Positions 40,075 through 57,765 of a stretch of DNA of 64,000 bases are shown piece by piece. The stretch is from an uncultured Candidatus Saccharibacteria bacterium (GTDB lineage Bacteria > Patescibacteriota > Minisyncoccia > UBA6257 > 2-01-FULL-56-20). Each line of letters opens with the position of its first letter. Within the stretch, counting starts at the first letter, position 1. The translations under genes and the position numbers were made by a program. The notes beneath the pieces are model-generated. The model was given only the letters and a program-made list of their open reading frames with translations, was not told the DNA's origin and did no database searches. Where the stretch lies: positions 5,641-69,640 of the forward strand of contig CAYHXC010000002.1 in NCBI GenBank assembly GCA_964360585.1, given 5' to 3'.

Positions 40075-40166
40075 GAGCAGATTCAAGGCTTGGCCGAGTA
40101 CCGCAACCGAGATGTATTCAACATACACCGAGGGCGGAACGCAGGCCGTAACGCAGAATCTGCCCA
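40075..40166. ncRNA. copy A of a repeated structured element (conserved acaaggcttg..gagtaccg..cgagggcggaacgca..gtaacgcag framework with four covarying helices)
   Basis: Lies immediately 3' of the 40183..40695 gene. Pairings are P1 gcagattc/gaatctgc, P2 ggcc/ggcc, P3 atgtat/atacac and P4 ccgc/gcgg. Confidence 0.6.
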
Positions 40167-40182
40167 ATTTATTTCTAAGTTT

Positions 40183-40695
40183 TTACTGTTCGAAAGCGCG
40201 ATTAGCACGTCCCGCCGCCCCATACGATCGAATAACCGCTGGAAAATTGGTGCCATCATCCTTACATGGATCAATAATATCGTCGGGACCGGGATCAATA
40301 TCGGTCGAATAACACACGATTTTATCAATCTTCGCGCCGTTTCCAATCCCATTTTGATCAGTCATATCAAGAGAGGCGGGAACAATGGCATTCGGAAATC
40401 GCAGGGTGTAGTTCGCAAGTTCAATACCAGCATCAGCAGCGAAAATCGCTTTATTTGAGTCACGAAGATCGGTTGACTGGCGAATCTGGTGAAGCATCAA
40501 AAGTCCGGCAATGGTCGTCGCGCCCAAAAGGGTGCCGCCCAAAGCAATCACCGTCAGCAACATTGCCTGCCCTGAGTTATGTCGAAGGGCCTGCCCGGAA
40601 CGAAACTGCGGTTTCTTTAGAATCAAAGTTTTACTCATCGGGAGCAATTTCAATTCTCCCACCCTGTTTATATTTGTTACCTCCCAAACCATCAC
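40183..40695 (-). CDS. membrane-anchored hypothetical protein in pilus locus (possible minor pilin/PilX-like)
   Basis: Single N-terminal TM helix AMLLTVIALGGTLLGATTIAGLLM. The start is uncertain; an internal Met lies at ~40638. Confidence 0.4.
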   Translation of the reverse strand: MMVWEVTNINRVGELKLLPMSKTLILKKPQFRSGQALRHNSGQAMLLTVIALGGTLLGATTIAGLLMLHQIRQSTDLRDSNKAIFAADAGIELANYTLRFPNAIVPASLDMTDQNGIGNGAKIDKIVCYSTDIDPGPDDIIDPCKDDGTNFPAVIRSYGAAGRANRAFEQ

Positions 40696-41656
40696 ACGAG
40701 TTCAATGAGATTGAAGCATCCGGCGCCATGCCAAAAACGCCATTTTGATTGACACTGACAAGTGGTTTATAGGTACCGGCATTATACCGACAGGCAAAAG
40801 TAGCGGTCGTACTGGCCGTAAGAATAGTCCCGGAGCTAGGATTCTTTCCTTTTTCATCGCAAATAAACTGATAGATCATTGGCAGATTACTGGTTGTGGA
40901 CACTGTCGCCGTAAGACTAACCCTGATCGGCGCCTGGCCACATGAGGGAGAGGTGGTCATCGTCACGTCAATTTCCGGTAGCGTCGCCTGCGGCGCGGGC
41001 GCGAAATTTGTAGTAACAGAGTTGGCAACTAACCAACCAACCACATCACTTCCCCAAGCGTACCCTAAGAGAACACCTTTTGTGCCGCTCTTTGAGGCTA
41101 CAAACCCAGGATACGGCTGGCGCGTTACGGAAGTAATCCCCTCGCTAAAACTGACCCAGCCGTCCCAGCCGCCAGAATTGATACCTGGACCGGAAGAAAC
41201 GCACTGATCAGCTTTCCCATCACCATCGGTATCAACAGTAAAATCACAACCGGCCAAAAACCGCCCCCAACCTTCCATTTTTTTTGTTGACGCCAGAGGA
41301 TCAATCCAGGCAGTTGAGGTTGCGCCAGAACTATTAAAAGGAGCGCCCGGTGGTGTCCTCGTTTGGTTGCGATTAAAACTTAGCCAACCGGCATTCGGCG
41401 TCCAAGCATATCCACTAAATGCGCCCGTATTGTTATCAATAATAACTTGGTATGCAGCTGAAGAGGGGCCGGGACAATTAAACGTATTTTTTCCGCCGCA
41501 AAAACTGATCCAGCCAATATTCGGCGACCAGATCCAACCTTCCAGTTTAAGATCGGCAGATGCGCCATTGGCTGGCTGGCCTACAAAGAAAACCACGCAA
41601 AGGATTGTAACAAAAGCAATACTGCCAAAAAAAATGAGTCGCGAAGGAAAAGACAT
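40631..41656 (-). CDS. secreted hypothetical protein with GWISF/GWLSF-type repeats
   Basis: N-terminal signal/anchor MSFPSRLIFFGSIAFVTILCVVFFVG followed by a W/G/S/T-rich repetitive region. Confidence 0.5.
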   Translation of the reverse strand: MSFPSRLIFFGSIAFVTILCVVFFVGQPANGASADLKLEGWIWSPNIGWISFCGGKNTFNCPGPSSAAYQVIIDNNTGAFSGYAWTPNAGWLSFNRNQTRTPPGAPFNSSGATSTAWIDPLASTKKMEGWGRFLAGCDFTVDTDGDGKADQCVSSGPGINSGGWDGWVSFSEGITSVTRQPYPGFVASKSGTKGVLLGYAWGSDVVGWLVANSVTTNFAPAPQATLPEIDVTMTTSPSCGQAPIRVSLTATVSTTSNLPMIYQFICDEKGKNPSSGTILTASTTATFACRYNAGTYKPLVSVNQNGVFGMAPDASISLNSCDGLGGNKYKQGGRIEIAPDE

Positions 41657-41695
41657 GCGCTTTTATTATATCACACTGAAACTTCCCTCTCCCCG

Positions 41696-42376
41696 TTAAA
41701 GATCCGGGAGGAAACAGAGAAATCCTTGTCGCGAGGAAACGGTGGTCTGAATTTCGGTGAGATCATCGCGCACTCCTTGTTCGGATCGAGGACTGACGCC
41801 AAGGGCGATTGTAACACGCGGGGCGTGGTCGGGTGTGGCATCCGGATCGCCTACCGGACAGTTCCCTAGCTGTTCGAATCGAAGATAGCGAATAGCCACA
41901 TTTTCGGCCGTAACCGCTTCACCTCCTGGTGCGAGAAGGTCTGAAGCATTTAACCGCATGAGATTATTAGAAGCATCACGCCAATAGGTTATCCGCTGAC
42001 GTTTGGCATTCTGAAACTCCAAGCGACAGTCATCGCACACACCCGGCATGGGAGAAACAATAAAACCAACGCCGGTTCGAATTTCTCGCGCCATCTGTTC
42101 AATAGCCAAGCTGGCGTTACTATTCGCCGCGACGAGTGCTTGCACCTGCCGTTGTGCTCGCAAGGCTCCGACAAATGCTCCCACACCCACCGAAAATACC
42201 GTAGCAAAAAGTGCCACCGAAACTAACGTTTCTATGAGAGTGAACCCCCCCACCTCAGAACAACTAAAAAACTCAAATATATTTTTCTTCCAGAATGGAA
42301 TTTTGCTTTTCCCATCGTCTCTTGCATGAGGTGGGGGGGTGAACCCTTCACGGTTTTTGTAATCAATACGATTCAT
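41696..42376 (-). CDS. prepilin-type N-terminal cleavage/methylation domain protein (pseudopilin)
   Basis: Contains GGFTLIETLVSVALFATV, i.e. the G|FTLIE class III signal. Confidence 0.65.
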   Translation of the reverse strand: MNRIDYKNREGFTPPPHARDDGKSKIPFWKKNIFEFFSCSEVGGFTLIETLVSVALFATVFSVGVGAFVGALRAQRQVQALVAANSNASLAIEQMAREIRTGVGFIVSPMPGVCDDCRLEFQNAKRQRITYWRDASNNLMRLNASDLLAPGGEAVTAENVAIRYLRFEQLGNCPVGDPDATPDHAPRVTIALGVSPRSEQGVRDDLTEIQTTVSSRQGFLCFLPDL

Positions 42377-42377
42377 A

Positions 42378-42935
42378 CTAAGGAATGGTGGAGGAAGGAT
42401 TAAAGAAATAATCGATTAGATTCACTTCGTTATCGCCGGTTTTATCTTTCCAGCGAACCAACGATTGCACAACCATCTGATCATCGGCCATCCCCTCGGG
42501 TGTTCCTAGATATGAGATCAACACGGTTCGATAGAAAATAGTTGGCTTAGCATTCACTTCGTTATGATCGTAGAAACCGGTATCAGAATGATAGTACAAT
42601 GGCTTGCCATCAATCGGATAGAGTCCGGAATACTCGGGGAGATTGTCACATGGCCACGTTTCGGGAACAGATAGGTGGTAGTCAAGCTGATAATTTCCAG
42701 CCGGAAGACCAACGCGCCAGTTATCGCATTTATCATCATTTGTATCCACGATGTTTTTAACAAGTTCAATGCCTTCGGCGGCGAGATAGGTGCCACGATA
42801 GTTATTCGAGACCACCTCATTAAAACCAAGCGATGAATTCAAAAGGATAATGATACCCAAAAATCCGACGGTTAAGGCGCCGAGCGCCACCACCATCTCA
42901 ATAATCGTCTGTCCTTCGTGTGCCTGAAATCGCAT
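42378..42935 (-). CDS. prepilin-type protein (pseudopilin)
   Basis: N-terminal MRFQAHEGQTIIEMVVALGALTVGFLGIIILL. Confidence 0.6.
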   Translation of the reverse strand: MRFQAHEGQTIIEMVVALGALTVGFLGIIILLNSSLGFNEVVSNNYRGTYLAAEGIELVKNIVDTNDDKCDNWRVGLPAGNYQLDYHLSVPETWPCDNLPEYSGLYPIDGKPLYYHSDTGFYDHNEVNAKPTIFYRTVLISYLGTPEGMADDQMVVQSLVRWKDKTGDNEVNLIDYFFNPSSTIP

Positions 42936-42939
42936 GGGT

Positions 42940-43581
42940 CTAATCTATAAAATTATACGCCACCTGGCCGCCTTGGCCGACGGTGATACGGATTCGGCCG
43001 CTGCCGTTTTTATTTTTTACGACAATCGAGCTACTACTCGCGCGCAATTTCGTACCATCCGGGGCGAAGAAGTAGATTTGGGGATCGGGCGGTCGGAAAA
43101 CAATATCCGCGGCCGTCGTCTCGCTCGCATCAAACACCACATTGCGCGATAAAACATACTCCCCTCGTTCGGCCACCACCCGATCATAGTTTGAGATGAT
43201 CGAAGTAGAGCTGCCGATATTGGCGCACAAAGGCACGGGAATACTGGGATCAGGTTGGAGTTTCTTGAGATACCGATTGAGACTGAACTTTCCCGGATCG
43301 GAAGCAAGATCAATTGAGAGACCGTGGGCGCAGGTTACGCGACTGACATCAGGATCACGATAGGCGGAGATGGCCAAAGATTTTGACCGCAAGATAACGT
43401 CTATAACCTTAGAAGCCTCGACGTAGAGGGTCACCTGATCATGGCCAATGCGGCTGAAAGACACGAGTGTGCCGGAGATAATCGCCATAATCGCGACTAC
43501 AACCAAAAGTTCGATCATGGTAAATCCTTCACGAGGGGTGAGGGTTAAGGGTAGAGGGTTAAGGGTAGATTTTTTAATCAT
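42940..43581 (-). CDS. prepilin-type protein with long Pro-rich leader
   Basis: Contains REGFTMIELLVVVAIMAIISG. The leader LNPLPLTLTP is encoded by a 14-bp tandem repeat. Confidence 0.7.
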   Translation of the reverse strand: MIKKSTLNPLPLTLTPREGFTMIELLVVVAIMAIISGTLVSFSRIGHDQVTLYVEASKVIDVILRSKSLAISAYRDPDVSRVTCAHGLSIDLASDPGKFSLNRYLKKLQPDPSIPVPLCANIGSSTSIISNYDRVVAERGEYVLSRNVVFDASETTAADIVFRPPDPQIYFFAPDGTKLRASSSSIVVKNKNGSGRIRITVGQGGQVAYNFID

Positions 43582-43946
43582 CTTTCTAGAATTTTTCCGT
43601 GACCTAACTTTTTCATCAGTACAGTAAGCATCTTTTGAATTTCTTCAATCAGATTTTTCGCCTCTCTAAAATCTTGCCCAGGATAAAGTTCTTCGGCAAT
43701 AATGATCTGAGTTTCTAACTCACCAGCCGAACCATTCGCCACACCTAAAAATTGAATATATTCTTTCCGATTTCTTCTTTTGTATCCTTCGGCAACATTT
43801 GAAGGAATAGAAACGGCACATCGCCTCATTTGGCTTGAAAGACTGTACAATTCACTTTTGGGAAATTGATCAGTAATGCGATAAATGACCTTCACTAATG
43901 CAACTCCTTTCTTCCAAACCTCCAGATCTTTAAACGAGATTAACAT
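43578..43946 (-). CDS. four-helix-bundle protein (23S rRNA intervening-sequence protein family)
   Basis: Contains DLEVWKKGVALVKVIYRITDQFPKSELYSLSSQMRRCAVSIPSNVAEG, the family signature. Confidence 0.7.
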   Translation of the reverse strand: MLISFKDLEVWKKGVALVKVIYRITDQFPKSELYSLSSQMRRCAVSIPSNVAEGYKRRNRKEYIQFLGVANGSAGELETQIIIAEELYPGQDFREAKNLIEEIQKMLTVLMKKLGHGKILER

Positions 43947-43991
43947 TGCATGAATCAGTCCTAAACCCTCTACCCATCCCCCTATACCCTA

Positions 43992-44849
43992 TTATAGGCG
44001 AAAGAGGTGAAAGTAGAAATCGAGAATCTGGAAGCCAAAAAGGAAGACGAGGACAGAAGATAAAACGAGAAATGGACCAAACGGCAGGAAATCTTTGCGT
44101 TTTTTCTGTCCGGCAAGGAGAAGGGGCAAGGCCCAGAACGTGCCAAGAATGAAAGCAAGCGGAATGAGAAGGCCGATATCCGGCCAGCCGAATAATAATC
44201 CCAAAGCCGCCCCGAGCTTCAGATCGCCGCCGCCCATCCCCCGTCCTCGCGAAAGAACAATGAGCACGAGGAAAAAGAGAAGTCCGGCCGCACAGCCAAG
44301 AGTATGGTCAAGCCAGATATTTGATCCAAAACGAAAGAGAAGCGCGTAGTGGCCGATAAATGTTTCGGTAAAGGCGGTGAATGTGTCAGCCTTGAGAAGA
44401 ATTAAGGGGAAAGCTAGGAAAAATAAAAAAATGTTCAGCTCATCCGGAATAATCCGGAGACGAAGATCGATGAGCGCCACGAGAAGCAGGGCGAGAAATG
44501 CCAGGATCCAAATAATAGGGGTTAGTGGGTAGGGGTTAGTGGGTAGGGAAGAGAAAACTCCCAATCGCCACGGCACCATGATGAAAACAAGTCCGGAAAG
44601 AATTTCAACGAGCGGGTATTGCAAACTCAAATGTTTTTTACAAGAACGACAAAGGCCGCCCTGCACCAGAAAGCTAAGAAGTGGAATGAGTTCATACCAC
44701 CGAAGCTGTTTCCCACAATGGGGACAGTGCGAGCGGCCTCCTAAAATATCGGAATGGAACAAAAAACGTTCTGGATCATACCGAAGCGCCACCACATTCA
44801 GAAAACTCCCGATCATCAATCCGAAGATGAAAAAAGGGAGGAAAGCCAT
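43992..44849 (-). CDS. pilD: prepilin peptidase (A24 family, with N-terminal zinc-finger)
   Basis: Carries CPHCGKQLRWYELIPLLSFL...CRSCKK and polytopic TM helices. Confidence 0.9.
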   Translation of the reverse strand: MAFLPFFIFGLMIGSFLNVVALRYDPERFLFHSDILGGRSHCPHCGKQLRWYELIPLLSFLVQGGLCRSCKKHLSLQYPLVEILSGLVFIMVPWRLGVFSSLPTNPYPLTPIIWILAFLALLLVALIDLRLRIIPDELNIFLFFLAFPLILLKADTFTAFTETFIGHYALLFRFGSNIWLDHTLGCAAGLLFFLVLIVLSRGRGMGGGDLKLGAALGLLFGWPDIGLLIPLAFILGTFWALPLLLAGQKKRKDFLPFGPFLVLSSVLVFLFGFQILDFYFHLFRL

Positions 44850-44858
44850 GCGCTTGAA

Positions 44859-45278
44859 CTAGAAAGTCAAACAGTAAACGTCGACAGCATCACAACTGAT
44901 ATCAGGACCAGCGCCACCATTACTCAAAGAGCCTCCGGTGCCAAAATGACTGCCATTTAAAGACGCACTCCGTTCCCCTTCTAATTTAGCTCCAAGCACA
45001 TACACATTACCGTCGCTCGTGTAATAGTATGGAGTGTCATTAGGATCATTCGGAATACGTAACATAGCGCCCAAATCACCCAAACTGGACGGATAAAGTC
45101 CATATCGGTTGAAGTATAATTGCAAACCAGTCTGGATCTGATGCAACTCGGCCGCTCGTCTGGTGTCTCGGCTCTGGTTCAGACTCGGCCGCAAGCCGAC
45201 TAAAACGATACCGGCCAAGATTGAGATGATCGCCACAACGATCAAAAGCTCGATGAGAGTAAAACCTTTTCGATTCAT
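44859..45278 (-). CDS. pilA: type IV pilin (major pilin candidate)
   Basis: Sequence MNRKGFTLIELLIVVAIISILAGIV is a canonical short leader with G|FTLIEL. Confidence 0.85.
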   Translation of the reverse strand: MNRKGFTLIELLIVVAIISILAGIVLVGLRPSLNQSRDTRRAAELHQIQTGLQLYFNRYGLYPSSLGDLGAMLRIPNDPNDTPYYYTSDGNVYVLGAKLEGERSASLNGSHFGTGGSLSNGGAGPDISCDAVDVYCLTF

Positions 45279-45297
45279 ATGTCTTTTTATACGTGTG

Positions 45298-45463
45298 CAG
45301 AGTCCATCTCAAAAATCCATTTCTATAACAATGACGAAATTTCCGGCTGCAAGCCACTCATCCCTCCTCTCCATAGCTACGGCTATGCTTCGTCGGGCTT
45401 CATGCCTTTCGCTCGGAACTTTAGTATGTTATGACGAAAGCGATTTTTGAGATGGACTCTAGC
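45298..45463. repeat. 19-bp perfect inverted repeat (agagtccatctcaaaaatc) bracketing a 123-bp segment, 20 bp upstream of the pilA start
   Basis: The left arm is at 45300-45318 and the right arm at 45443-45461. Internal direct repeats atgacgaaa sit next to each arm. Confidence 0.7.
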
Positions 45464-45510
45464 GAATCTCGACCTTTTTGTATATTTCCCATTCTACAAC
45501 TTTGAATTAT

Positions 45511-45609
45511 GAATGGCCATCGGCAAGGCTTGATTGAGTACCGTAACCGAGGTGTATTTAAAATACATCGAGGGCGGAACGCAAATCGTAACGCTGCAGA
45601 TGGCTATTC
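45511..45609. ncRNA. copy B of the repeated structured element
   Basis: Lies immediately 3' of pilC. Pairings are P1 ggccatc/gatggc, P2 gatt/aatc and P3 gtattt/aaatac. Confidence 0.6.
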
Positions 45610-45622
45610 ATAATTTCAAAGA

Positions 45623-46834
45623 CTACTGGAATGTAGAAACTAACTTGTAAAGAGGAATCAGGATTGATCCGAATAGAAGTCCGGTCAAAAGACCCAATCC
45701 CACCATCAGAACCGGCTGAATCAGCTCGGTCATGTTGTTAATTGTATCATCCAGCTCCCGACCGTACAAGGTAGCGATACGTGTGAATATCTCATCCACC
45801 TGTCCGGTAATCTCTCCGACGGCTAACATCTGCGGCACCAGTGTGGGAAAGTAGTCCGGCTGGCGCGCCATGGCTTTTGAAATCGTATCTCCTTGCCGCA
45901 CGGCATTACTAATATCACGAAGCAGTTCTTCATAGACAGCGTTATCCACAGTCTGACTCACAATCTCGAGCGTTTGCGCGACCGGCACGCCACCATGCAA
46001 AAGAATGGCGGCGTTATTCGAGATGCGGGTAATGACAAGCGGCGTATAAATCTTCCCCACAATCGGCAAGCGAATTTTCAGCTCATCAAATACCGCTTCG
46101 CCTTCCTTCGTCCGAGCATAATCAAGAATAGTCGCCATAATGACGACCAACGAAATGATGAGCGCGAGCCACCAGCGGCTCAAGAAATCACCGCTCGAGA
46201 GAAGTATTCGGGTGAAAAGCGGCAGGTCCACTTTAGCTTGCGCAAAGATCGGACCGATCTGCGGAAAAACAACAGTAATTAAAAGTACCGAAACACCGAT
46301 AAAAAGAAAGACAACGATAATGGGATACATCAGCGCCGATTTCACTTTACTCGTGATCACCAGTTCTTTTTCATAGTAGTCAGCCAAAAAAGCGGCCGCT
46401 TCGGCCAGGTTGCCCGTGACTTCCGAGGCGCGGATAAGACTGATAAAAAATTCAGAGAAGACACTGCTCTGCCGTTCCAGGGCCTGGGAAAAAGACAAAC
46501 CGGAGTTAATATCTTCGGCGACTAAGGTGACCGCTTCTTTCAGGGTTGTATTTTGAGTTTGCTGGACTAAATTCCGCAGGGCGTCGCCAAGCGGTAAGCG
46601 GGCATTTAAAAGAAGGGCCAGCTGACGACTGAAAATGACGAAGTCTTTTCTTCGCACCAGCGAGAAATAACTGGCCAGACGATCATACCAGTGAATCGAC
46701 TCGGCCGCTTCGAGCGTGAGGATGAAAAGATTGTGGCTGGCTAAAATACTGGCGGCGCTATCTTTCGTGCCAGCCTCAATAAAACCGACTTGCAGTTCTC
46801 CTTCGCGCGTTTTTGCTTGGTACTTATATTTCAT
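45623..46834 (-). CDS. pilC: type IV pilus assembly platform protein (GspF/PilC family)
   Basis: 403-aa ORF with two T2SSF-type repeats and three TM segments. Confidence 0.9.
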   Translation of the reverse strand: MKYKYQAKTREGELQVGFIEAGTKDSAASILASHNLFILTLEAAESIHWYDRLASYFSLVRRKDFVIFSRQLALLLNARLPLGDALRNLVQQTQNTTLKEAVTLVAEDINSGLSFSQALERQSSVFSEFFISLIRASEVTGNLAEAAAFLADYYEKELVITSKVKSALMYPIIVVFLFIGVSVLLITVVFPQIGPIFAQAKVDLPLFTRILLSSGDFLSRWWLALIISLVVIMATILDYARTKEGEAVFDELKIRLPIVGKIYTPLVITRISNNAAILLHGGVPVAQTLEIVSQTVDNAVYEELLRDISNAVRQGDTISKAMARQPDYFPTLVPQMLAVGEITGQVDEIFTRIATLYGRELDDTINNMTELIQPVLMVGLGLLTGLLFGSILIPLYKLVSTFQ

Positions 46835-46919
46835 GACTAGGGTTTAGGGTCGAGGGCTTAGGGTCGAGGGTCTTTGGTTCCAACTACACCCCATACCCTA
46901 ACCACTATCCCATGATTTT

Positions 46920-47996
46920 TTACATACGTTCGAGGAGGATTCGCAGCTCGGCAGGGTTTAAGGAGTAGAGTTCCGCGTTCTCCAGGGAAATTTCCTTGTT
47001 CTTTACCAGCGTCGCAAGCGAACGGTTCAAGGTGACCATCCCCTCCTGGACACTGGTTTCGATAACCAGATCAATCTGATAGATCTTTCGTTCGCGAATT
47101 AAGTTCCGAATAGCTGGGTTCACAATCATGATTTCATTCACGGGAATACGTCCGCCGGACAAACGCGGCACAAGACGCTGGGAAACGATCGCAACGAGCG
47201 TCGCCGCCAGCTGGGACATAGCCTGGGACTGTTGTTCCGGCGGGAAAGAATCGATGATACGGTCAATCGTCTGAGCGGCAGAGTTGGTGTGAAGCGTGGA
47301 AAAAACCAAGTGACCGGTTTCTGACGCGGTCATGGCCGTGGCGATCGAGGTGGCGTCACGCATTTCACCGATCATAACCACGTCCGGATCCTGACGGAGA
47401 ACGGTGCGCAGTCCGGCGCTGAAACTGGGAATGTCCGTCTCTACTTCTTTTTGCGAGATGATCGCCCGATCCTGGGCAAAAACATACTCGATCGGATCTT
47501 CAATGGTAATAATGTGATCGGTGCGGGTGTGGTTGATCTCGTCTAAGATGGCCGCGAGCGTGGTTGATTTTCCATGACCGGCCGGACCGACAACCAGAAC
47601 GAACCCTTGAGAGAGTTTAGAAAAATCGTGGAGAATCGGTGGCAAGGAAAGTTCTTCGAGCGTGCGGACGTGCGGCGGAATGAGACGCAAGGCAGCGGCC
47701 ATATAGCCACGCTGGAAGTAGACGTTGGCGCGAAAACGAGCCTTGTCTTCATAACTATAAGCAAAGTCCAGCTGGCGCTCGTCCACAAATCTTTTCTGCT
47801 GTTCAGGCACAAGGAGATTCATAATTAATCCTTGAGCCATCTCCGGCGTCACAATCTCCTCTTTCTGCAGGGGCACTAAAACCCCATCTAAACGAAGCGA
47901 CGGCCGGCGGCCGACGCTGATATGGAGGTCGGAAGCATTCTGCTTGGCGGTTGTTAAAAGGAGCTCGTCGAGTTTTGCTTTATAATCATCAGGCAT
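46920..47996 (-). CDS. pilT: twitching-motility retraction ATPase (PilT family)
   Basis: 358-aa ORF with Walker A GPAGHGKSTTLAAI and the Asp box and His box of the secretion ATPase family. Confidence 0.8.
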   Translation of the reverse strand: MPDDYKAKLDELLLTTAKQNASDLHISVGRRPSLRLDGVLVPLQKEEIVTPEMAQGLIMNLLVPEQQKRFVDERQLDFAYSYEDKARFRANVYFQRGYMAAALRLIPPHVRTLEELSLPPILHDFSKLSQGFVLVVGPAGHGKSTTLAAILDEINHTRTDHIITIEDPIEYVFAQDRAIISQKEVETDIPSFSAGLRTVLRQDPDVVMIGEMRDATSIATAMTASETGHLVFSTLHTNSAAQTIDRIIDSFPPEQQSQAMSQLAATLVAIVSQRLVPRLSGGRIPVNEIMIVNPAIRNLIRERKIYQIDLVIETSVQEGMVTLNRSLATLVKNKEISLENAELYSLNPAELRILLERM

Positions 47997-48206
47997 ATCA
48001 GGGTAGTAGAAGTTCGATATTAAAGATTCCTATTCGACAATTTGTTTTCCAGGCATGAAACACCTATCGAACTTTCACAACCTGGCATAAAAAAATTATA
48101 CCATATATATTGAACTACACCTGTTTTCCTGCTTCAGTTCAGAAATTATCAGATACAAGGCTGGGTTAAACACGCAACTGAACGGTATTTAGATACTCAT
48201 CTTTTC

Positions 48207-48340: not shown

Positions 48341-48348
48341 GAAAAAAC

Positions 48349-50163: not shown

Positions 50164-50690
50164 TTCTTCTTAATGATTCTATCTCGATAGATATCCATCT
50201 TTCTTCGAAAAGTCGGGCTAGGACGAACTTCTAGATTAATTAAATCAGAAATGCCATGAGGTTGAACGAGAACAAGCTTGTCATTCTCGTCGAGCAGAAC
50301 AGCAAGACAGGTCACCGTTTCCGGCCATCGAGAGAGTGCGTCTTCTGAAGAAGTATAGGGGTCGTCGCCATTATCCACATGAAGACGGACTTGATTGTTC
50401 AAGGACCACCTTGGTCCGGGCATCTCTTCGGATAATTTTTCCTGAAGTTTGGTTTCAGTATCCTCACTCACGTCAGTCCGATCAAAATAAATAACATCAA
50501 TATCGTCGAGAGGCGTCCTATCTTTGTAACCATGGAGGTGGTCCCACACTTTATTACGCACGAAACCAGCTCCGATCATAGCGTCAGGAAGTTTTAAATC
50601 CCTCACTGTCTTTAGAATATCCATCATCCACTGATCTTCAGAAATAATGCGTAAAATATCTTTTTCGGTCATACGTTGATATATTGGCAT
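50121..50690 (-). CDS. nucleotidyltransferase-family protein (NTP_transf-like)
   Basis: Contains DILKTVRDLKLPDAMIGAGFVRNKVWD...DIDVIYFD. The start is reassigned to MPIYQRM; the ORF track's N-terminal extension is the translated repeat element C. Confidence 0.5.
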   Translation of the reverse strand: MPIYQRMTEKDILRIISEDQWMMDILKTVRDLKLPDAMIGAGFVRNKVWDHLHGYKDRTPLDDIDVIYFDRTDVSEDTETKLQEKLSEEMPGPRWSLNNQVRLHVDNGDDPYTSSEDALSRWPETVTCLAVLLDENDKLVLVQPHGISDLINLEVRPSPTFRRKMDIYRDRIIKKNWQKKWPKLVIHEL

Positions 50691-50699
50691 AAAATTTGA

Positions 50700-50809
50700 G
50701 TTTAAAAACGATGAGCTACAAGGCTTGGTCGAGTACCGCAAGGGAGCTGTATTAAGCATACAGCGACTGCGGCACGGAGACCGTAACGCAGTAGATCACG
50801 TTTTTAAAC
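50700..50809. ncRNA. copy C of the repeated structured element
   Basis: Lies immediately 3' of the 50815..51132 gene. Pairings are P2 ggtc/gacc and P3 ctgtat/atacag. Confidence 0.6.
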
Positions 50810-50814
50810 TCAAA

Positions 50815-51132
50815 TTACGGTAGGAAGGGATTATCTTTGCCGACCACCCCCTCCCCCGGCGGCTGAACATAGGTTGTTCGCGTAGTGAAAGCCGGATTCT
50901 GAAAAACTTTAGTATTCAGTTCAATCTGGGCCACCTGGACAGTTTGTCGAAAACTCGCCGGTCCAACGGTATTAATAATCTCGGGATTTTTAAAGAAAAT
51001 GAGATAGACGGCCAAAATAATCGTGACGATAATCACCAGCCAGCCGATTAAGACGATCACGCTCCCCTGGTCCCGTTCTTCTTCGACAACAATAGCCATA
51101 TCAGATAGTAGAAATTCGACTGAGAATCCCAA
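50815..51132 (-). CDS. small single-TM protein (pilus-locus associated)
   Basis: 105-aa ORF with a TM helix VIVLIGWLVIIVTIILAVYLIFF. Confidence 0.4.
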   Translation of the reverse strand: MGFSVEFLLSDMAIVVEEERDQGSVIVLIGWLVIIVTIILAVYLIFFKNPEIINTVGPASFRQTVQVAQIELNTKVFQNPAFTTRTTYVQPPGEGVVGKDNPFLP

Positions 51133-51231
51133 AGATTATCAGGGCTTTAGTTCGACTATGGAAAGAAAATATCATTGTTCAGTATGTTTTAGATAATAAC
51201 GGAATTGTCGAATTTTCACTACCTGACATAG

Positions 51232-51849
51232 TTACATTTGTTGATAATATGATACGACCTCAGCGGTGCCGGTAAAAAGATCGACGCCGGCTTTGGCGCC
51301 GAGCGGCTGAAGGTTGGCAGAGCGGATTTCCATGAGGAGCACGTTGTTTTCGATCCGAGAAAAGAAGTCCTTCACCTGATTATACGATCCCGTAAAGGCA
51401 ACCCGAAAGGTGAGGGTGCCTACAGGCTTCACCAGCGGTTTGGTTGAAGGGATGAGCGCGGAACGATTGACCTCCGGCGTAATATTCTGAAGCGAGAGAC
51501 CGCTTAAACGAACCAAGCCTTCCAGCTGAACCAGCGAACTGCTTAAGTCCGGTCCCAAAGGAAGCGTAGCCGAAAGCGCGTTTCTCAAATTGCCGGCGCT
51601 GTCACCCGTATAATTATCAATCAGTTTCAAAACATTATTGACCGCCGGTTTCTGCTCGGCTAAAAACTTATTGTATCCATTCCGCTCTCCAATTGTTTTC
51701 TGAAGATTCTCATAGGCCGGCTGGGTCAGTTCAAAATAAACGACAAACGAACCGAGTATAAAGACAAGGGCAAAGGCCATGCTGGCGAGTCGTTTTGTTC
51801 CTTGTTTCATATTATTGGGCGGAAGTTGAAGTGGTCGACGATGTTGCAA
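51232..51849 (-). CDS. PilO-like pilus assembly protein
   Basis: N-terminal TM helix followed by a periplasmic coiled-coil and ferredoxin-like region, in pilMNO synteny. Confidence 0.5.
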   Translation of the reverse strand: MQHRRPLQLPPNNMKQGTKRLASMAFALVFILGSFVVYFELTQPAYENLQKTIGERNGYNKFLAEQKPAVNNVLKLIDNYTGDSAGNLRNALSATLPLGPDLSSSLVQLEGLVRLSGLSLQNITPEVNRSALIPSTKPLVKPVGTLTFRVAFTGSYNQVKDFFSRIENNVLLMEIRSANLQPLGAKAGVDLFTGTAEVVSYYQQM

Positions 51850-52483
51850 CGCCAGGAACAGTGGTCGAAGCCGGAGTACCGATTGGAAGATCAGTCGTCG
51901 GCTCGCTTGCCTCTATCGTTTCACTCGTCATGGCAGAAGCAAAAAAGCTAGGAGTCATAGTGAGGGTGATCGAGAATGTCCAAACGCCCGATTTTTGATC
52001 GAGAGAAAGCTGTGTCAGTTGCGAACTCTTGACTAATGATTGCGATTTAAATCGATTCAGCTGTTCGCCCAAATTGACAATTGAACGCGCCTGTCCGCCA
52101 AGCGTCATTGTTTTATTCGTGCCGTTAAAAACAAAACTCACGAGCTGCACATTGACGTTGGTGTTTTCCTCGAGCCAGGAAAAAGATTTTGAGGGCATGC
52201 TCTGTTTTTTGAGCAGTGTGCTCAAGTTATCAAGCTGGGAATAAAAAGAAATGAGCTCGTCCTGATCGCGTTCCGGAACCTGCTTGCTAAAATCAGCAAT
52301 TTCCTTTTCCAAGCCGGCAATCTGATTTTCTAAATATGGTTTGTAGCCAAACTGAATGCCGAGATAGATTCCGAAACTCAAAATAAAAAATGTGGCGCTA
52401 AAAAGAAGCACGCGGCTTGACCAGCCCGGCGTCCGTGCCGGCGCTCGGCTTAACTGATCAACAACTTTTGAGGGAAGGGCCAT
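51812..52483 (-). CDS. PilN-like pilus assembly protein
   Basis: N-terminal TM helix with a coiled-coil, directly downstream of pilM. The C-terminus is Thr/Ser-rich. Confidence 0.5.
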   Translation of the reverse strand: MALPSKVVDQLSRAPARTPGWSSRVLLFSATFFILSFGIYLGIQFGYKPYLENQIAGLEKEIADFSKQVPERDQDELISFYSQLDNLSTLLKKQSMPSKSFSWLEENTNVNVQLVSFVFNGTNKTMTLGGQARSIVNLGEQLNRFKSQSLVKSSQLTQLSLDQKSGVWTFSITLTMTPSFFASAMTSETIEASEPTTDLPIGTPASTTVPGVATSSTTSTSAQ

Positions 52484-52550
52484 GAAGAGGTGTCGCGAAT
52501 AATGCTAATGTGAATAAATAATGCGAATAAACTTATAACTCATTTTGATT

Positions 52551-52597
52551 GTACCGTGAGCGCGAAACAGAGATTGTAACGAAGTAGATAAACATTT
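52551..52597. repeat. partial/degenerate copy of the structured element (3' portion only)
   Basis: Sequence ttgattgtaccgtgagcgcgaaacagagattgtaacgaagtag, 3' of pilM. Confidence 0.35.
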
Positions 52598-52607
52598 TAT
52601 GAGCAAA

Positions 52608-53738
52608 TTAGACGAGTTCTTTCATTCCTAGTCCTAATGCCACAGTGAAAAGCGGATTGAGTTGCGGAATGAGCGGTTCCATGAGCGGCGGGTATTCAAA
52701 GCGGAGGAAGGGAGAGGCTTTGACCGTAGGACGACCAAGTTCCCGCTCGACATACTTCTCAATGCCTAAAAGATTCGCTCCTCCACCGGAAAGAATAATC
52801 CGCTCCACGGGCTTCACGTTCGTAAACTGACTACTATAATTAAACTCCTGCTTCTTGACATCTCCTAGTATAGCATCTAAAAACGGCAGCATTATTGTGG
52901 ACAACTCATATTCGGCGCCGCTTCCAACCAGACCCCGTTCCTTCTTCAGCTCCTCTGCCCGACGGGAGTTGATGTTCAAACTCGAGGCCAACGCCTGCGT
53001 GAGCGAGGCGCCGCCAAAATCACTCTGCCCGTTAAACCGCAACTGTCCGCCCTCAAAAAAAGCGATATTGGTCGAACGGGAACCGATATCAACAACCGCC
53101 GTCGGCGTCGGATCATTGCCAACCAGGATTCTGCCCACACTCAAACTTTCGAGTTCCAGCCACCGCAGATTGAGACCAGCTGTCTCAAACACTTTTTTAA
53201 ACTTGGCGATATGCTCGAGCGGCACGGACAAAAGCAAAATTTGTTGATGATGATAGCCTTTGTCGTCGTCGAACTCTCCCACCTTAATCCACTCGAGACT
53301 CACTTCCGATATCGGCAATGGAATATACTGCTTGGCCTGGAAGGCAATCGAGTTCTGCAACTCTCCCGGCGTCATCTCCGGAAGATCGAGCAGGGTGACG
53401 AAAGCGGAAAAAATTGGAAACGAAGCAATCACATCCCGCGTCTGCGGTTTCATCTTGCCGATAATCGATGTCAGAATCTCTGTTGCCTCCTGATCAAACA
53501 GTTTTAAATTGCTGGATTGGATGGCCGAAGTCGGCCGGCCGAGATACTTGCTCTCTTCCGAGAAACCATAGTTCACTACCGCCGGCATTTTTCTCCCCGG
53601 CTTCACTTCAACCACTTTAATCGAGGTCGTCCCGATATCTACGCCCAAATACGACGGAAAAAGATTCCGCCGGAACGAGCGATAGGCCGTCAGTGGATTG
53701 ATCCAGTCGAGCATCGTACTATAGAGTATATCACACAA
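52608..53738 (-). CDS. pilM: type IV pilus assembly ATPase-like protein PilM (actin/HSP70 fold)
   Basis: Contains LGVDIGTTSIKVVEV, a phosphate-1 motif. Confidence 0.8.
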   Translation of the reverse strand: MCDILYSTMLDWINPLTAYRSFRRNLFPSYLGVDIGTTSIKVVEVKPGRKMPAVVNYGFSEESKYLGRPTSAIQSSNLKLFDQEATEILTSIIGKMKPQTRDVIASFPIFSAFVTLLDLPEMTPGELQNSIAFQAKQYIPLPISEVSLEWIKVGEFDDDKGYHHQQILLLSVPLEHIAKFKKVFETAGLNLRWLELESLSVGRILVGNDPTPTAVVDIGSRSTNIAFFEGGQLRFNGQSDFGGASLTQALASSLNINSRRAEELKKERGLVGSGAEYELSTIMLPFLDAILGDVKKQEFNYSSQFTNVKPVERIILSGGGANLLGIEKYVERELGRPTVKASPFLRFEYPPLMEPLIPQLNPLFTVALGLGMKELV

Positions 53739-53752
53739 ATTGCCCTCATTTT

Positions 53753-54454
53753 ATGCGAATTTTCGGCGCCATCATCGATAGTCTCTTCCCTGCTCGCTGC
53801 ATTCGGTGTGAAAAAAATATTCCTCGTCAGGAAGATGCGCTTTGTTCCGATTGTTTGGAAACAATCACACTCCCCAACACACTTTTCTGCGGCACCTGCG
53901 GCGCGCGACTGCCAGCCGCCAAAAAAATCTGCCATCGCGATACGCCCTACATTCTCGGAAGCATCGCCGAGTACGAAGATCCGACCATCAAAAAACTGAT
54001 TCACGCCCTGAAGTTCAAACGACTGAAACCAGTTAGTGTTTTTTTAGGCAACCTTCTGGTCGCCTATGTTGAGAATCTCAACCCTCCATTCGTCTTGACC
54101 GAGGAAACGATTATTATTCCTCTTCCTTTGAGCAAGGAACGGCTCCGTGAACGCGGGTTCAACCAGGCCGCGCTTATCGCCAAAACGTTTGCTGAAAATG
54201 TACACCTCCCGATGCTCGAAGATGTTTTAATCCGCACCCGACACTCGAAACCGCAAAGCCAGACGGAAAACGTGAAGGATCGCGAGGAAAATGTCCATGA
54301 TGCCTTTCACGTTGTGCGGCCGGAGATGATCGCGGGTAAAAAACTGATTGTGATTGACGATGTGACCACAACCGGCGCCACCCTCCGGAGCGCCTCGAAA
54401 GTACTAAAACAAAACGGCGCGAAAGAAATCCTCGCACTCACCATCGCGCGGTAG
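53753..54454 (+). CDS. comF: ComF-family phosphoribosyltransferase (competence protein F)
   Basis: N-terminal Cys4 zinc ribbon (CIRCEK...CSDC...CGTCG) and the PRTase motif KLIVIDDVTTTGATL. Confidence 0.85.
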   Translation: MRIFGAIIDSLFPARCIRCEKNIPRQEDALCSDCLETITLPNTLFCGTCGARLPAAKKICHRDTPYILGSIAEYEDPTIKKLIHALKFKRLKPVSVFLGNLLVAYVENLNPPFVLTEETIIIPLPLSKERLRERGFNQAALIAKTFAENVHLPMLEDVLIRTRHSKPQSQTENVKDREENVHDAFHVVRPEMIAGKKLIVIDDVTTTGATLRSASKVLKQNGAKEILALTIAR

Positions 54455-54457
54455 AGA

Positions 54458-54949
54458 TTGTGCTATAGTAAATGCATGGATGAACGAGAAACTATTTCCT
54501 GGGAAGCGCCGGAATTTGAACACCACGAAAAGGACGTTCTCTGGGCCTGGGGTTCGATTATTCTGGCTGTCGTCGTGCTTGCGTTTGCGATTATAAACCG
54601 CAACTTTCTGTTCGCCATTTTTATTGTTATCGCCGAAGTTTTGATTCTCACCTGGGGCCACCGCGAACCGCGCGACCTTACCTTTGAAATAGATGAAAAA
54701 AATCTTGTGATTGCCGGCCGCGAACGCCACGCTCTCCGCGATCTCGACCACTTCGGCTTCATTGACTTAGGAGAACAGCATGAGCTCGTTGAACTCGGCC
54801 TCGTCTTCAAAAAATTCCGTCCGATCATCCGTATCCTCGTGCCGCGCTCGTCCGTAAAGACTGTTGGTGATCGCCTGAAACTCTACGGCCGCAAAGCCGA
54901 GATGGAACCGACCGTAGTTGATATCATGGAGCGCCTTCTTCGGTTTTAG
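54458..54949 (+). CDS. hypothetical membrane protein
   Basis: 163-aa ORF with two TM helices. Confidence 0.45.
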   Translation: MCYSKCMDERETISWEAPEFEHHEKDVLWAWGSIILAVVVLAFAIINRNFLFAIFIVIAEVLILTWGHREPRDLTFEIDEKNLVIAGRERHALRDLDHFGFIDLGEQHELVELGLVFKKFRPIIRILVPRSSVKTVGDRLKLYGRKAEMEPTVVDIMERLLRF

Positions 54950-54953
54950 GTTG

Positions 54954-55025
54954 TGCGCTCGGTAGGAATCGAACCTGCATTACGGGATTCGCAATCCCGT
55001 GTCCTATCCGTTGAACGACGAGCGC
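54954..55025 (-). tRNA. tRNA-Arg (anticodon GCG), atypical
   Basis: Minus strand reads GCGCTCGTCGTTCAACGGATAGGACACGGGATTGCGAATCCCGTAATGCAGGTTCGATTCCTACCGAGCGCA. The T-stem has a C-A mismatch. Confidence 0.55.
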
Positions 55026-55233
55026 AAGGTCGTTTCCGCAGTCAGCTGGAAAGCGGAAGCGACTATTTCTTATACCGTATTTTATACGTTGAGGCAATCT
55101 ATCTTCTCGTCCAAAACACGCAATTACGCCGGAGGCGGATCTGTATGGTCAGCGCCAATACCAGAAGGATTAAAGAAAAGGTCTTGGTCTGGATTGATTT
55201 ACTAAGCAAAGCACTATACTATAATTCGACATC

Positions 55234-55305
55234 GCGGGAGTAGTTCAGAGGCAGAACGTCTCGTTGCCAACGAGAAGATCGCGGGTTCGAATCCCGTCTC
55301 CCGCT
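55234..55305 (+). tRNA. tRNA-Gly (anticodon GCC)
   Basis: Sequence GCGGGAGTAGTTCAGAGGCAGAACGTCTCGTTGCCAACGAGAAGATCGCGGGTTCGAATCCCGTCTCCCGCT. Confidence 0.85.
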
Positions 55306-55587
55306 CACTTCTTCGCTCCTTATGGAGCTACGAAGTGCAGGCCATTAACTTGCACTTCGGTATGATTGATGGCGAAGAAGTACTCTTCATAGCCTTCGCC
55401 TTGCCGAAGCCAGAGGCGAAGTGCAGGTTGGCGAAGAATGGGCCTTACTTCAACCCGCAGTCCAAAAGAACATAAATCTGGTTTATAATAACTACATAAG
55501 GCCGGCGGGAAGGACCGGAGGTATTATCGAAAATACCTTCATTTTCTCTCGTTTTTTCGTAACCAAAGACATATTTTATCGTTATCT

Positions 55588-56124
55588 ATGATAGATGGTG
55601 AAGAAGACATCATAAAAAGCGCCATCCAGGGCGAGGCCTCGGCCTTCGGCTTACTCTACAAGCACTATCAGCCGAGTATCTATCGGTTCGTATACTTGAA
55701 AGTCGGCCGTCGTGAGGAGGCCGAGGACCTCACCCATCACGTTTTCCTGAAGGCTTGGCAGAATATCGAAAACTTCAAACCCCGTGGCTTCCCCTTCTCG
55801 AGCTGGCTCTACCGTATGGCCCGGAATCAAGTCATTGATTTCTACCGCACGGCCAAAGGGAACATCTCGATTGACGATCTCGACTCGGACATCTTTAGGT
55901 CGAGCGACGATACGGAAGGTTCATTTGATCTTAGTCTTCTTTTGGCAAGTGCTCGGAAAGCCATCCTCGAGCTCAAGCCGGAGCACCAGGACGTGATCAT
56001 TATGCGTTTTGTGGAAGACCTTTCGGTCAGAGAAGTGGCCGAGGCTCTGAAGAAAAGCGAAGGGGCGGTCAAACTTTTGCAACATCGAGCGATGGAAAAA
56101 TTGCGAGAAATCCTTCATGACTAA
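55588..56124 (+). CDS. RNA polymerase ECF-type sigma factor
   Basis: Region 2 (FGLLYKHYQPSIYRFVYLKVGRREEAEDLTHHVFLKAW) and region 4 (VIIMRFVEDLSVREVAEAL). Confidence 0.9.
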   Translation: MIDGEEDIIKSAIQGEASAFGLLYKHYQPSIYRFVYLKVGRREEAEDLTHHVFLKAWQNIENFKPRGFPFSSWLYRMARNQVIDFYRTAKGNISIDDLDSDIFRSSDDTEGSFDLSLLLASARKAILELKPEHQDVIIMRFVEDLSVREVAEALKKSEGAVKLLQHRAMEKLREILHD

Positions 56125-56596
56125 TCTCGAACACATTTTAAAAAAGCTGAAACACATCGAACCGGAGCAGCACTATGCCGACCGGTCGTTACACACGATT
56201 GTCATGACCCCGCGAACATCGCGAGCTTCGTGGTTTTCCTTTACCTTTTTCCGAGTCGCGGAGTATGGCGCCGCCGTAGCCCTCGTTGGATTATTGCTCG
56301 TCGTCATGCTTGGCAACTCTTCTCTCGTGACTACGTTTTCGCCAATTCAATCCAATAGCTTAAGTTCGGGTGGACTGCGGGCCGAAGCAGAAGCGATTGA
56401 TATCCAGATCAAACTGCTCGACCTTGATTACGAGGAGAGTTCGAGCACGCTTATCAAGAAATCCACCACTCCGATTCTTCGGAAGAAAACCAGCCGACAA
56501 GTGATTGCGCCACTCGAGACAACCACATCAACAATCGCGAACGAATCAACCACTCCCCCAACCGTAGACGAAGTTTTAGACTTACTCGCTGAATGA
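56117..56596 (+). CDS. putative anti-sigma factor (single TM)
   Basis: Overlaps the sigma factor gene stop. It has a cytoplasmic N-terminus, a TM helix AVALVGLLLVVML and a Ser/Thr-rich tail. Confidence 0.45.
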   Translation: MTNLEHILKKLKHIEPEQHYADRSLHTIVMTPRTSRASWFSFTFFRVAEYGAAVALVGLLLVVMLGNSSLVTTFSPIQSNSLSSGGLRAEAEAIDIQIKLLDLDYEESSSTLIKKSTTPILRKKTSRQVIAPLETTTSTIANESTTPPTVDEVLDLLAE

Positions 56597-57345
56597 TAGC
56601 TCTAAAACGCACACATTCTAGAAGCGCTGTTCTGGCAGTGCTCGTTCTCGCCGCTAGTTTGCCGTTTCACGCGAGCGCCCAAGGGCCGCTCTGTGATTTT
56701 GGAACAAAAATAACCGAACTAAAAGCCTTGCAGTCCAGCGGCACAAACGAAGTCGTGGCCGAACTGAATGTCCGAAAAGATCTTTTGAAAATCAGCATCG
56801 GCTGCTTAAAGAAAGAAACGAAGTATTCCGATAGCGAACTCCAAAAGATCGAATCGGATCGTGAAGATATCAAAGCTTTTGCCGAATGGATCCATCGGCA
56901 GATTCAAGAGAATGTCAGCTACTACAACTACAAAGAAACGCAGATCGACAGTTTGGGCTTGAAGGGGGCTAAAGATTTTGCCAAAGAATTAGCGAACCGC
57001 AAAGAGCAGGTGAACACTGTTCTCGACAACTTGGTCGTCAGCCTGACCGACTGGATGAGTAACGAAAATTTATTTAAGACTGGCGAGAAGCGTTTTGCGG
57101 ATATCAAGAAGACACTGAGCGCCTTTAATCTGCCGCACGATCACGAAATCCTTCTCCTAGAAAAAGAAGCGATGGGAATTTTCAATGAAGGAAAGGTAAA
57201 GCATCAGGAAACCTGGAAGGATCTCTCGAACCGAGAGGTTGAAGCTAGCCGAGCCGAAGCCAAAGAGTCATTGGAACTTCTGGCCGAAGCATACGAAGTT
57301 TTCCTTAAGATAAGCGAGGTTAGTAAAAAAACTCTCCCACTTTAA
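56593..57345 (+). CDS. secreted coiled-coil protein
   Basis: Signal peptide MIALKRTHSRSAVLAVLVLAASLPFHASA followed by Lys/Glu-rich helical sequence. Confidence 0.5.
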   Translation: MIALKRTHSRSAVLAVLVLAASLPFHASAQGPLCDFGTKITELKALQSSGTNEVVAELNVRKDLLKISIGCLKKETKYSDSELQKIESDREDIKAFAEWIHRQIQENVSYYNYKETQIDSLGLKGAKDFAKELANRKEQVNTVLDNLVVSLTDWMSNENLFKTGEKRFADIKKTLSAFNLPHDHEILLLEKEAMGIFNEGKVKHQETWKDLSNREVEASRAEAKESLELLAEAYEVFLKISEVSKKTLPL

Positions 57346-57650
57346 CCTTAAAACGCGAAATGCTTCGTTACGGCCTGCGCTCCGCCCTCACATAAATGTG
57401 AACTTCCGCCGAAGGCGGATCCTCCTCCGGAGGACGCTTACGGTGCTCGGCCAAGCCTCGCATTTCATCATTTTATGGCTAAAGTAAAATACACTATCCC
57501 TTCAACATAAAACACCCCGTCTATAGGGGTGTTTTGATTGTTGAATTAAATTCAGATCCAGAATTGTTGATTTTTGGATTTTCTACAAGGCGGCAGTGAG
57601 TACCGAAGCGAGACAGGGAGTTATCAACGGAACTTGATTCTCAAATTTTA

Positions 57651-57760
57651 TTGATAACGCGATGAAATACAAGGCTTGACCGAGTACCGCCCCGAGCAAT
57701 ATTGAAACATATTGTAAGGGCGGAACGCAGGTCGTAACGCAGTAGTTCGCGCGTTATCAA
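57651..57760. ncRNA. copy D of the repeated structured element
   Basis: Lies immediately 3' of hup. Pairings are P1 ttgataacgcg/cgcgttatcaa (11 bp), P2 gacc/ggtc, P3 caatat/atattg and P4 ccgcc/ggcgg. Confidence 0.6.
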
Positions 57761-57765
57761 TAAAA

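Follow-up and report, generated by a model that had tools for sequence, protein, structure and literature searches.

Why does the same structured element recur directly behind one gene after another of a bacterial pilus region, and which of the two DNA strands is the one that folds? The question is raised by a 64,000-nt stretch of DNA from an uncultured Candidatus Saccharibacteria bacterium (contig CAYHXC010000002.1, positions 5,641 to 69,640; the whole stretch is called the window below), in which an earlier note, made from the sequence alone, had described five copies (A, B, E, C and D) of a candidate structured RNA motif. Patescibacteria, the candidate phyla radiation (CPR), have tiny, gene-dense genomes, and to our knowledge almost nothing is known of CPR non-coding elements, mobile DNA or transcript ending. 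We find that each copy folds as one long imperfect hairpin, a rod of ~125 nt, and that the copies belong to a previously uncatalogued element family, whose nearest kind is the palindromic repeats of the repetitive extragenic palindromic (REP), miniature inverted-repeat transposable element (MITE) and attC types. From these it departs in its multi-helix core with variable arms, its strong covariation, its strand asymmetry and its lock to stop codons. The family is a well-supported new structure for RNA and repeat catalogues, and it presents a puzzle: the strand that appears to be selected to fold is not the mRNA strand, yet the element is locked to the stop codon.

Compensatory changes preserve the fold, the mark of a structured functional nucleic acid. 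Among 19 distinct rows, taken from this genome and its relatives, 96.4% of cells hold standard pairs and 21 of the 27 pairs have changes on both sides (covariation score 0.647), figures that lean towards the model since the alignment was fitted to it, with the invariant loops anchoring the register. No column shuffle out of 500 equalled the alignment on any measure, and shifting the 3' partners by 1–3 columns gave scores of only 0.065–0.094; covariation was assessed by these pair counts and controls. The compensatory changes claimed before for helices P1 to P4 proved real, and RNAalifold recovered the helices. The outer helix, P1, is complementary through compensatory changes as described, but it extends over ~25 bp rather than 7–11 bp. 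Similarly, the framework of conserved loops with an internal hairpin is real, but the spacer after CAAGGCTTG has 3 nt and not 4, the last G belonging to P2.

Reading along the model strand, the outer stem leads to an asymmetric loop (CAAGGCU / UAACGCAG), a 5-bp helix, a GA/GNA loop, a 7-bp helix with an A-A mismatch, an AA bulge, 2 bp (CC/GG), a tandem G-A loop that reads GAG/CGA, and the apical hairpin, which is often YUGUAU...AUACAR; the 3' return strand after the apical hairpin reads G-N-A and then U-A-A-C-G-C-A-G. The 5-bp helix is closed by a near-invariant U-G pair (15 U-G and 2 U-A among the 19 rows), and the 7-bp helix (GU-A-CCGC / GCGG-A-AC) exchanges U:A to C:G and C:G to U:A. Position 2 of CAAG changes with position 2 of GCAG, A occurring with C, G with A and U with A. 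Strong conservation is found in the centre of the hairpin, not at its ends. The outer arms are variable and pair in every copy (27-nt arms in an orientation-neutral alignment: 396 positions Watson-Crick, 37 mismatched), and their tips share a weak terminal-inverted-repeat consensus, CTTTGAAT...ATTCAAAG. Units measure ~122–150 nt in the window and 121–132 nt when they carry no insertions. Extra hairpins are tolerated at three places: copy E has an additional 20-nt hairpin (~48231–48250) within the CAAG/GCTTG junction, the apical hairpin (P3) of a further copy, F, is replaced by a three-hairpin insert, and the copy behind rplS on the related contig L011 carries an extra hairpin after GA. The apical insert of copy F also includes one member (57404–57442) of a 39-nt repeat, TTCCGCCGAAGGCGGATCC..., whose other member, 87% identical, is at 34437–34475 in a MerR-family open reading frame (ORF; 34354–35145).

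Several known motifs were considered for parts of the element and rejected. A sarcin-ricin/bulged-G motif at GAGUA/GAAC is ruled out by the U:A to C:G covariation, which makes this part a plain helix, and a K-turn by a bulge that does not adjoin the G-A pairs. An internal sigma-70 promoter (TTGNNN ... TGTATT) would have the wrong spacing and lacks the A2 base of the -10 element, and P3 matches neither dif/Xer nor Rep-nick motifs. A small ORF inside the element is ruled out by paired covariation in place of codon periodicity.

All five copies are present where the earlier note had placed them. The two-box pattern GAGTAYCG-N38-52-CGTAACG matches exactly five sites in the window, those of copies A, B, E, C and D, with 0 matches expected from dinucleotide-preserving shuffles, and four copies were recovered as a single direct-repeat family, 70–79% identical. 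A covariance model built from eight copies and run over the whole 64 kb with filters off recovered the five together with a sixth full copy, F, on the minus strand. The E values of the copies range from 1e-13 to 1e-32, and further matches in the rest of the 64 kb were weak and non-significant (at most 13.5 bits, E at least 0.12).

On the plus strand, copy A (40059–40180; 107 bits) is a full hairpin with its base 2–5 nt from the stop codon (40183–40185) of a 170-aa minus-strand gene, and it is located upstream of ligA. Copy B (45500–45621; 104 bits) adjoins the pilC stop codon (45623–45625) and copy E (48202–48345; 84 bits) that of pilB (48349–48351). The outer stem of copy C (50693–50816; 106 bits) is perfect over 18 bp; this copy overlaps the TAA stop (50815–50817) of a 105-aa gene and lies upstream of an NTP_transf_6 gene. 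Copy D (57645–57766; 85 bits) abuts or overlaps the hup stop codon (57766–57768). The newly found copy F (minus strand, hairpin 57337–57487, model match 57351–57472; 65 bits, E ~1e-18) overlaps the last 9 nt of a plus-strand gene (56593–57345) in the orientation opposite to that of the other window copies, and with copy D it makes a convergent inverted doublet. Between F and D there is a canonical bidirectional intrinsic terminator (57509–57535; AAAACACCCC-TATAGAC-GGGGTGTTTT). The gene next to copy C (50121–50690) encodes a nucleotidyltransferase (PF06042) and is placed between the 105-aa pilus-operon gene and pilB.

Remains of further copies are also found on the plus strand. A decayed copy (52528–52596; nhmmer E=4e-6), of which only the 3' half in model orientation is recognisable, comes just after the pilM stop codon (52608–52610). 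Two 5'-half remnants, each weak when taken alone, are ACAAGGCTGGGTTAAACACGCAAC beside copy E (~48144–48192; 10.4 bits with the covariance model, nhmmer E=0.045) and CAAGGCGGCAGTGAGTACCGAAGCGAG between the terminator and copy D (57579–57640; read from the sequence, nhmmer E=0.68). Counting the window and its relatives, a half remnant stands beside an intact copy at five sites.

Position at stop codons and the folding strand

All distinct copies (18 of 18) face the abutted gene in one way, the model strand being the complement of its coding strand; the plus strand, on which the motif had been written down before, is the antisense strand of the adjacent genes. The gap between the stop codon and the covariance-model match is 11–16 nt in 15 of 17 copies, and the base of the hairpin is 0–5 nt from the stop codon or overlaps it. 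The abutted genes are, in the window, the 170-aa gene, pilC, pilB, the 105-aa gene and hup, as well as the plus-strand gene 56593–57345 for copy F. Elsewhere they are a gene for a 263-aa membrane protein (contig L017), rplS and greA (L011, L024, L043 and L047), the gene of a DUF4012 protein (L047), hup (L029) and the gene before ligA (L031).

Copies D and F each sit between a stop codon and the terminator at 57509–57535, and L029 has the same order of hup, element and terminator, indicating that the 3' untranslated region (UTR) of the mRNA includes the element's sense strand. Since a separate canonical terminator adjoins these copies, the element is not itself the canonical terminator, which bears out the earlier opinion on this point. 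The outer stem is A+T-rich, no consistent T-run follows the element on either strand, and a scan for promoter and terminator consensus beside the copies gave nothing consistent. When the rplS-greA spacers of orthologues were aligned, the only conserved block was the sense-strand greA promoter. This block of ~45 nt (GTCTAATAACTTTAATTTACAATTC...CCCTACAGTTAAGG), found just upstream of greA in all four lineages (L040 1120–1209, L024 300–383, L043 and L047), is probably the greA promoter, greA being its own transcription unit. Several genes with an NYN domain (PF01936) cluster near the element-bearing rplS-greA loci (L043 7010–11292, L040 3413–3901); NYN domains are ribonucleases, and a link to the element is conceivable.

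Several measures point to the strand that folds. The modelled core pairs hold 33 G-U/U-G against 5 A-C/C-A cells with the near-invariant U-G left out (binomial p ~4e-6, for cells that are not independent), and the outer arms, scored without favouring either strand, hold 34 G-U against 7 A-C. In 14 of 18 copies the model strand folds more stably than the opposite one, the mean difference being 8.5 kcal/mol (Wilcoxon p=0.0008). The two conserved internal loops are tandem G-A motifs on the model strand, whose apical loops are rich in A; on the mRNA strand the conserved loops would be U-C mismatches. Together, the G-U excess, the stability and the tandem G-A loops lead us, with moderate confidence, to regard the complement of the mRNA as the strand on which selection for folding acts. 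Such a folding strand is compatible with single-stranded DNA (ssDNA) and with antisense RNA alike. Of the earlier proposal, a functional RNA or an ssDNA substrate, the structured nature therefore stands, and ssDNA is still live because the folding strand is the mRNA complement.

Persistence and turnover among relatives

The contig L017, from Hainich groundwater, is 100% identical to window positions 1–3494, extends the window leftwards and holds a seventh copy, G. Real copies also occur on L011, L040 and L041 (Hainich well H41), L024, L043 and L044 (Hainich well H51) and L047, and on L029 and L031, whose PilB proteins are 80% and 78% identical to that of the window. Relatives with PilB ~66% identical (L032–L036) have no copies with either model; by PilB, Candidatus Liptonbacteria and Paceibacterota come at 62–67% identity. 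An exact-pattern scan of 185,579 species genomes (one per GTDB species) gave only chance or coding matches, for example in Sulfuricurvum, and one of viral contigs gave chance matches only. In metagenomes the same scan found 18 stretches, three of them real (L011, L017 and L024). The family looks narrow, belonging to one Patescibacteria lineage near Liptonbacteria/Paceibacteria in Hainich groundwater and similar sites, and where it is present there is about one copy per 6–10 kb.

Close relatives differ by gain, loss, decay and replacement of copies, and other copies persist at orthologous sites. As for persistence, the site upstream of ligA is occupied in the window (copy A) and in L031, the two copies being 82% identical with compensated differences in the outer stem; the hup site is occupied in the window (copy D) and in L029; and the rplS and greA sites are occupied in four lineages. 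Between L011 and L024 greA is 85% identical (DNA) and the promoter block is conserved, and the spacer beyond the element cannot be aligned. The unalignable spacer means that neutral sites are near saturation, so that retention of the fold implies constraint.

As for turnover, relatives with 78–84% PilB identity lack the element at sites B, C, E and pilM. At site B, the spacer between pilC and a pilin gene, L028, L029 and L031 have an empty spacer of 45 nt, and the whole hairpin including its arms is extra DNA in the window. At site E the relatives carry a different hairpin or none; the gap between pilM and the next gene is only 6 nt in relatives; and copy C and the NTP_transf_6 gene are both absent from three close relatives. 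Insertion into pre-existing terminator hairpins is ruled out by the empty sites in relatives, which have no hairpin. The copies at the greA site are 55% alike in L011 and L024 despite GreA proteins 93% identical, and 88% alike in L024 and the more distant L043; the rplS site shows the reverse pattern. These crossed similarities indicate that each lineage had one copy replaced by a consensus-like one. The rplS copy of L043 and the DUF4012 copy of L047 are 81% alike at different sites in different genomes, and copy B, a gain in this genome, has its 5' arm in common with copy G. The family thus offers a natural system for the spread, replacement and fixation of small palindromic repeats behind rplS, greA and hup.

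In 8 of 17 copies the symmetric position at the far end carries the stop triplet again, as a direct repeat, where ~14% would be expected for an average triplet (p ~0.001, an optimistic figure from a generous null). Examples are TAAAA (A), TGAGT (E) and GTAG (B); the other copies are decayed or ambiguous.

Weighing the possible functions

Our tentative preference goes to a lineage-specific, non-autonomous REP/MITE-like hairpin element that is recognised as a folded single strand. The conserved purine-rich core would be the recognition platform for a trans-acting enzyme (of the HUH/RAYT, tyrosine-recombinase or DDE type), which might act on the element when one of its DNA strands is folded, copying or converting it, so that the whole unit spreads and replaces itself. 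In a gene-dense genome, insertions would survive only right behind a stop codon, possibly with a 3–5-bp duplication that regenerates the stop, and only if oriented so that the mRNA receives the less stable of the two strands. A by-product would be a hairpin of -35 to -60 kcal/mol next to the stop codon of the host mRNA. This hairpin could hold up 3' exonucleases, be a target for RNase III or insulate neighbouring transcription units from each other, and such an effect may account for the retention of old copies. Recognition of a folded-strand core with spread of the whole unit is the logic of REP/RAYT, of attC/IntI and partly of MITEs. If the element is such a REP-like parasite, it would be a marker for strain-level evolution in groundwater CPR.

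The likeness to known kinds is partial in each case. REP and bacterial interspersed mosaic elements with their RAYT (an IS200/IS605-type Y1 enzyme), and REPINs, are likewise extragenic palindromes in many copies at gene 3' ends within transcripts, with an imperfect hairpin that is presumably recognised as one folded strand of DNA, inverted doublets (as D/F here) and lineage-specific families with turnover. The present unit differs in its length (~125 nt against ~35 nt), its multi-helix core with conserved internal loops and variable arms, its strict orientation to the upstream gene and its base at the stop codon; it has no conserved GTAG foot, and no RAYT was seen. The earlier judgement that this is no simple REP therefore holds for the architecture, which is much richer, and less so for the behaviour: gain, loss, replacement, decay and the inverted doublet are REP/MITE-like. 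Bacterial MITEs such as Correia of Neisseria, ERIC/IRU and RUP share with it a palindromic unit of 100–150 bp with terminal inverted repeats, of which only a weak consensus is seen here, a possible short target duplication, co-transcription with flanking genes, presence/absence polymorphism between relatives and a long stem that is a plausible RNase III substrate. Unlike them, the present family conserves its termini weakly and its centre strongly, its stems covary, its wobble asymmetry points to one folded strand, all 18 copies have one orientation, and an autonomous partner was not found. Structured RNA motifs of the Rfam type with long closing stems, among them STAXI, a suspected ssDNA motif, also combine conserved loops and covarying helices with many copies in a narrow lineage; the present family has no Rfam model match, and its position is fixed at stop codons, with the mRNA on the other strand.

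Several observations weigh against our preferred REP/MITE-like element. Among the matches listed for the 61 ORFs of the window (the best 25 of 46 families) there is no integrase or transposase domain, no Y1 transposase and no integrase of integron type, and neither a transposase, an integrase nor a RAYT was seen in the 64 kb and ~200 kb of relatives, the latter (Y1 transposases included) by precomputed Pfam labels only. An autonomous parent with the same ends and a transposase was not found in ~340 kb of loci. GC skew is negative on the plus strand across the window, and by this skew the predicted leading-strand template carries the folding strand in six of the seven copies of this genome (A–E and G); the best-folding strand is thus placed where ssDNA is rarely exposed. 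A lock to gene orientation is unexpected for a DNA transposon unless further selection is added, and only copy F tells a lock to the gene apart from one to the direction of replication. Four orthologous sites keep the fold through saturating divergence, which points to selection at the level of the host rather than pure selfishness. The target duplication is ambiguous, with lengths of 3–5 nt, TAA being common in A+T-rich spacers and extension of the palindrome being possible, and most copies differ in their outer arms, unlike the terminal repeats of classical MITEs. A possible, though doubtful, alternative is that the element is the substrate of a novel strand-specific process in CPR, either a stop-targeting, stop-regenerating ssDNA recombination or homing site, or a protein-binding or catalytic antisense RNA behind highly expressed genes. 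The GA-rich core, rather than the hairpin as such, would then carry the activity, and if that core turned out to be a site of recombination, or an RNA active in itself, it would define a new mechanism.

Two other explanations place the function in RNA. It is rather unlikely that the element is a cis-acting mRNA 3' UTR element of the host, a protein-bound or RNase III-processed hairpin on the sense strand that defines or protects the 3' end, insulates transcription units or couples to terminating ribosomes. The sense strand is certainly transcribed, as the D, F and L029 hup copies show by their place before a canonical terminator; copies keep a close and even distance from the stop codon; four lineages have kept one behind rplS and greA, and two have done so behind hup and upstream of ligA; a 3'-end signal is needed ahead of greA and pilT, each of which has a conserved promoter of its own a short way downstream; and an outer stem of ~25 bp suits RNase III. 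However, it is the sense strand whose helices have A-C mismatches where the other has G-U (5 against 33 in the core, 7 against 34 in the arms) and whose conserved loops are U-C/C-U mismatches, no consistent U-tract follows the hairpin, and relatives manage without the element at sites B, C and E. Unlikely, too, is a structured antisense non-coding RNA, made for instance from the divergent side of the downstream promoter, which would bind protein, be processed from the long stem or block antisense read-in, a new ribozyme class included. Here the folding strand is the right one, and its purine-rich loops, tandem G-A, A-rich apical loops and U-G pair are typical of functional RNAs, as is consistent with the correlated non-Watson-Crick position (CAAG/CGAG/CUAG with GCAG/GAWG/GACG) and with the lack of a match to any known family. 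On the other hand, there is no conserved promoter upstream in model orientation and no terminator after the element, and at D and F the transcript must first read through a strong bidirectional terminator. Ribozyme models fail as well: with Rfam 15 (4227 models) the whole window gave only six tRNAs at the gathering score, and at E<=10 nothing fell on the copies in the region 40000–58000, no ribozyme model included. The previous failure to match hammerhead, twister, pistol or hatchet is thereby confirmed, and it extends to the twister-sister, hairpin, HDV-like, 6S, Y RNA-like and STAXI families. Literature searches for structured RNAs or palindromic repeats of CPR/Patescibacteria found nothing relevant and no description of such elements.

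The organisation had also been likened to cassette-plus-attC arrays, which would make cassettes of the upstream genes and, of the elements, attC-type sites that fold as bottom strands. This is largely refuted and we consider it very improbable. The attC-like traits are real: the element has the size of an attC site, is an imperfect palindrome beginning at the upstream ORF's stop codon, conserves structure over sequence and folds on the strand complementary to the mRNA, as attC bottom strands do, and the NTP_transf_6 gene is present only where copy C is present. Against this, the neighbours are core housekeeping genes (rplS, greA, hup, pilB, pilC and the gene before ligA) in synteny conserved among relatives, with no array and no integrase among the listed matches; D and F are convergent; and four lineages have stably retained greA although a direct copy stands on either side of it. 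Conservation is central, and neither the R''/R' and L boxes (GTTRRRY/RYYYAAC) nor the extrahelical-base pattern of attC could be read in the sequences, the ends being variable or CTTTGAAT-like and GCGTTAC not fitting GTTRRRY. Hardly credible, finally, is an ordinary feature, be it chance similarity, a simple REP or plain intrinsic terminators. The copies are indeed palindromic and stand at gene 3' ends, but the pattern scan, the covariance-model search with its E values and the covariation of a multi-helix core exclude an ordinary terminator or simple REP: the unit is ~125 nt with no conserved GTAG, it lacks a GC-rich stem followed by a U-tract, and the canonical terminator is a separate one.

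Other hairpins and repeats in the region

Different long hairpins stand directly after the pilB stop codon in L028 (6325–6456) and L029 (11423–11551); at their tips (GCTTTGATT...AATCAAAGC) they are similar to the ends of the present family, and their core is unrelated. At site A, L030 has a simple long A/T-rich hairpin (15093–15205). The pilC-pilin spacer of the window holds, besides copy B, an unrelated hairpin of ~160 nt (45300–45459, arms GAGTCCATCTCAAAAATC / GATTTTTGAGATGGACTC), which is absent from L028, L029 and L031.

A separate inverted-repeat family of ~80–90 nt, with arms of the type GGTAGTAGAAGTTCGA / TCGAACTT..., occurs at gene 5' ends (48002–48085, 58080–58138, 51083–51244 and 23042–23137). 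Its pilT copy is inserted between a conserved TGGTATAAT promoter and the start codon, with a flanking ATGCC direct repeat, and the relatives are without it. This suggests a MITE that sits close to start codons and supplies a leader to an otherwise leaderless mRNA. Upstream of two minus-strand genes there are near-identical palindromes (CTATCACTATTATATAAAACGA|TCGTTTTATATAATAGTGATAG), one perfect (37209–37252) and one 95% complementary (37857–37896), that look like operators overlapping promoters. Among the top matching families listed for the window proteins there is no reverse transcriptase; one protein, from an ORF among those at 650–54949, matches PF05635, the 23S rRNA intervening-sequence protein family (E=2e-36), which includes the Avd proteins of diversity-generating retroelements (DGR).

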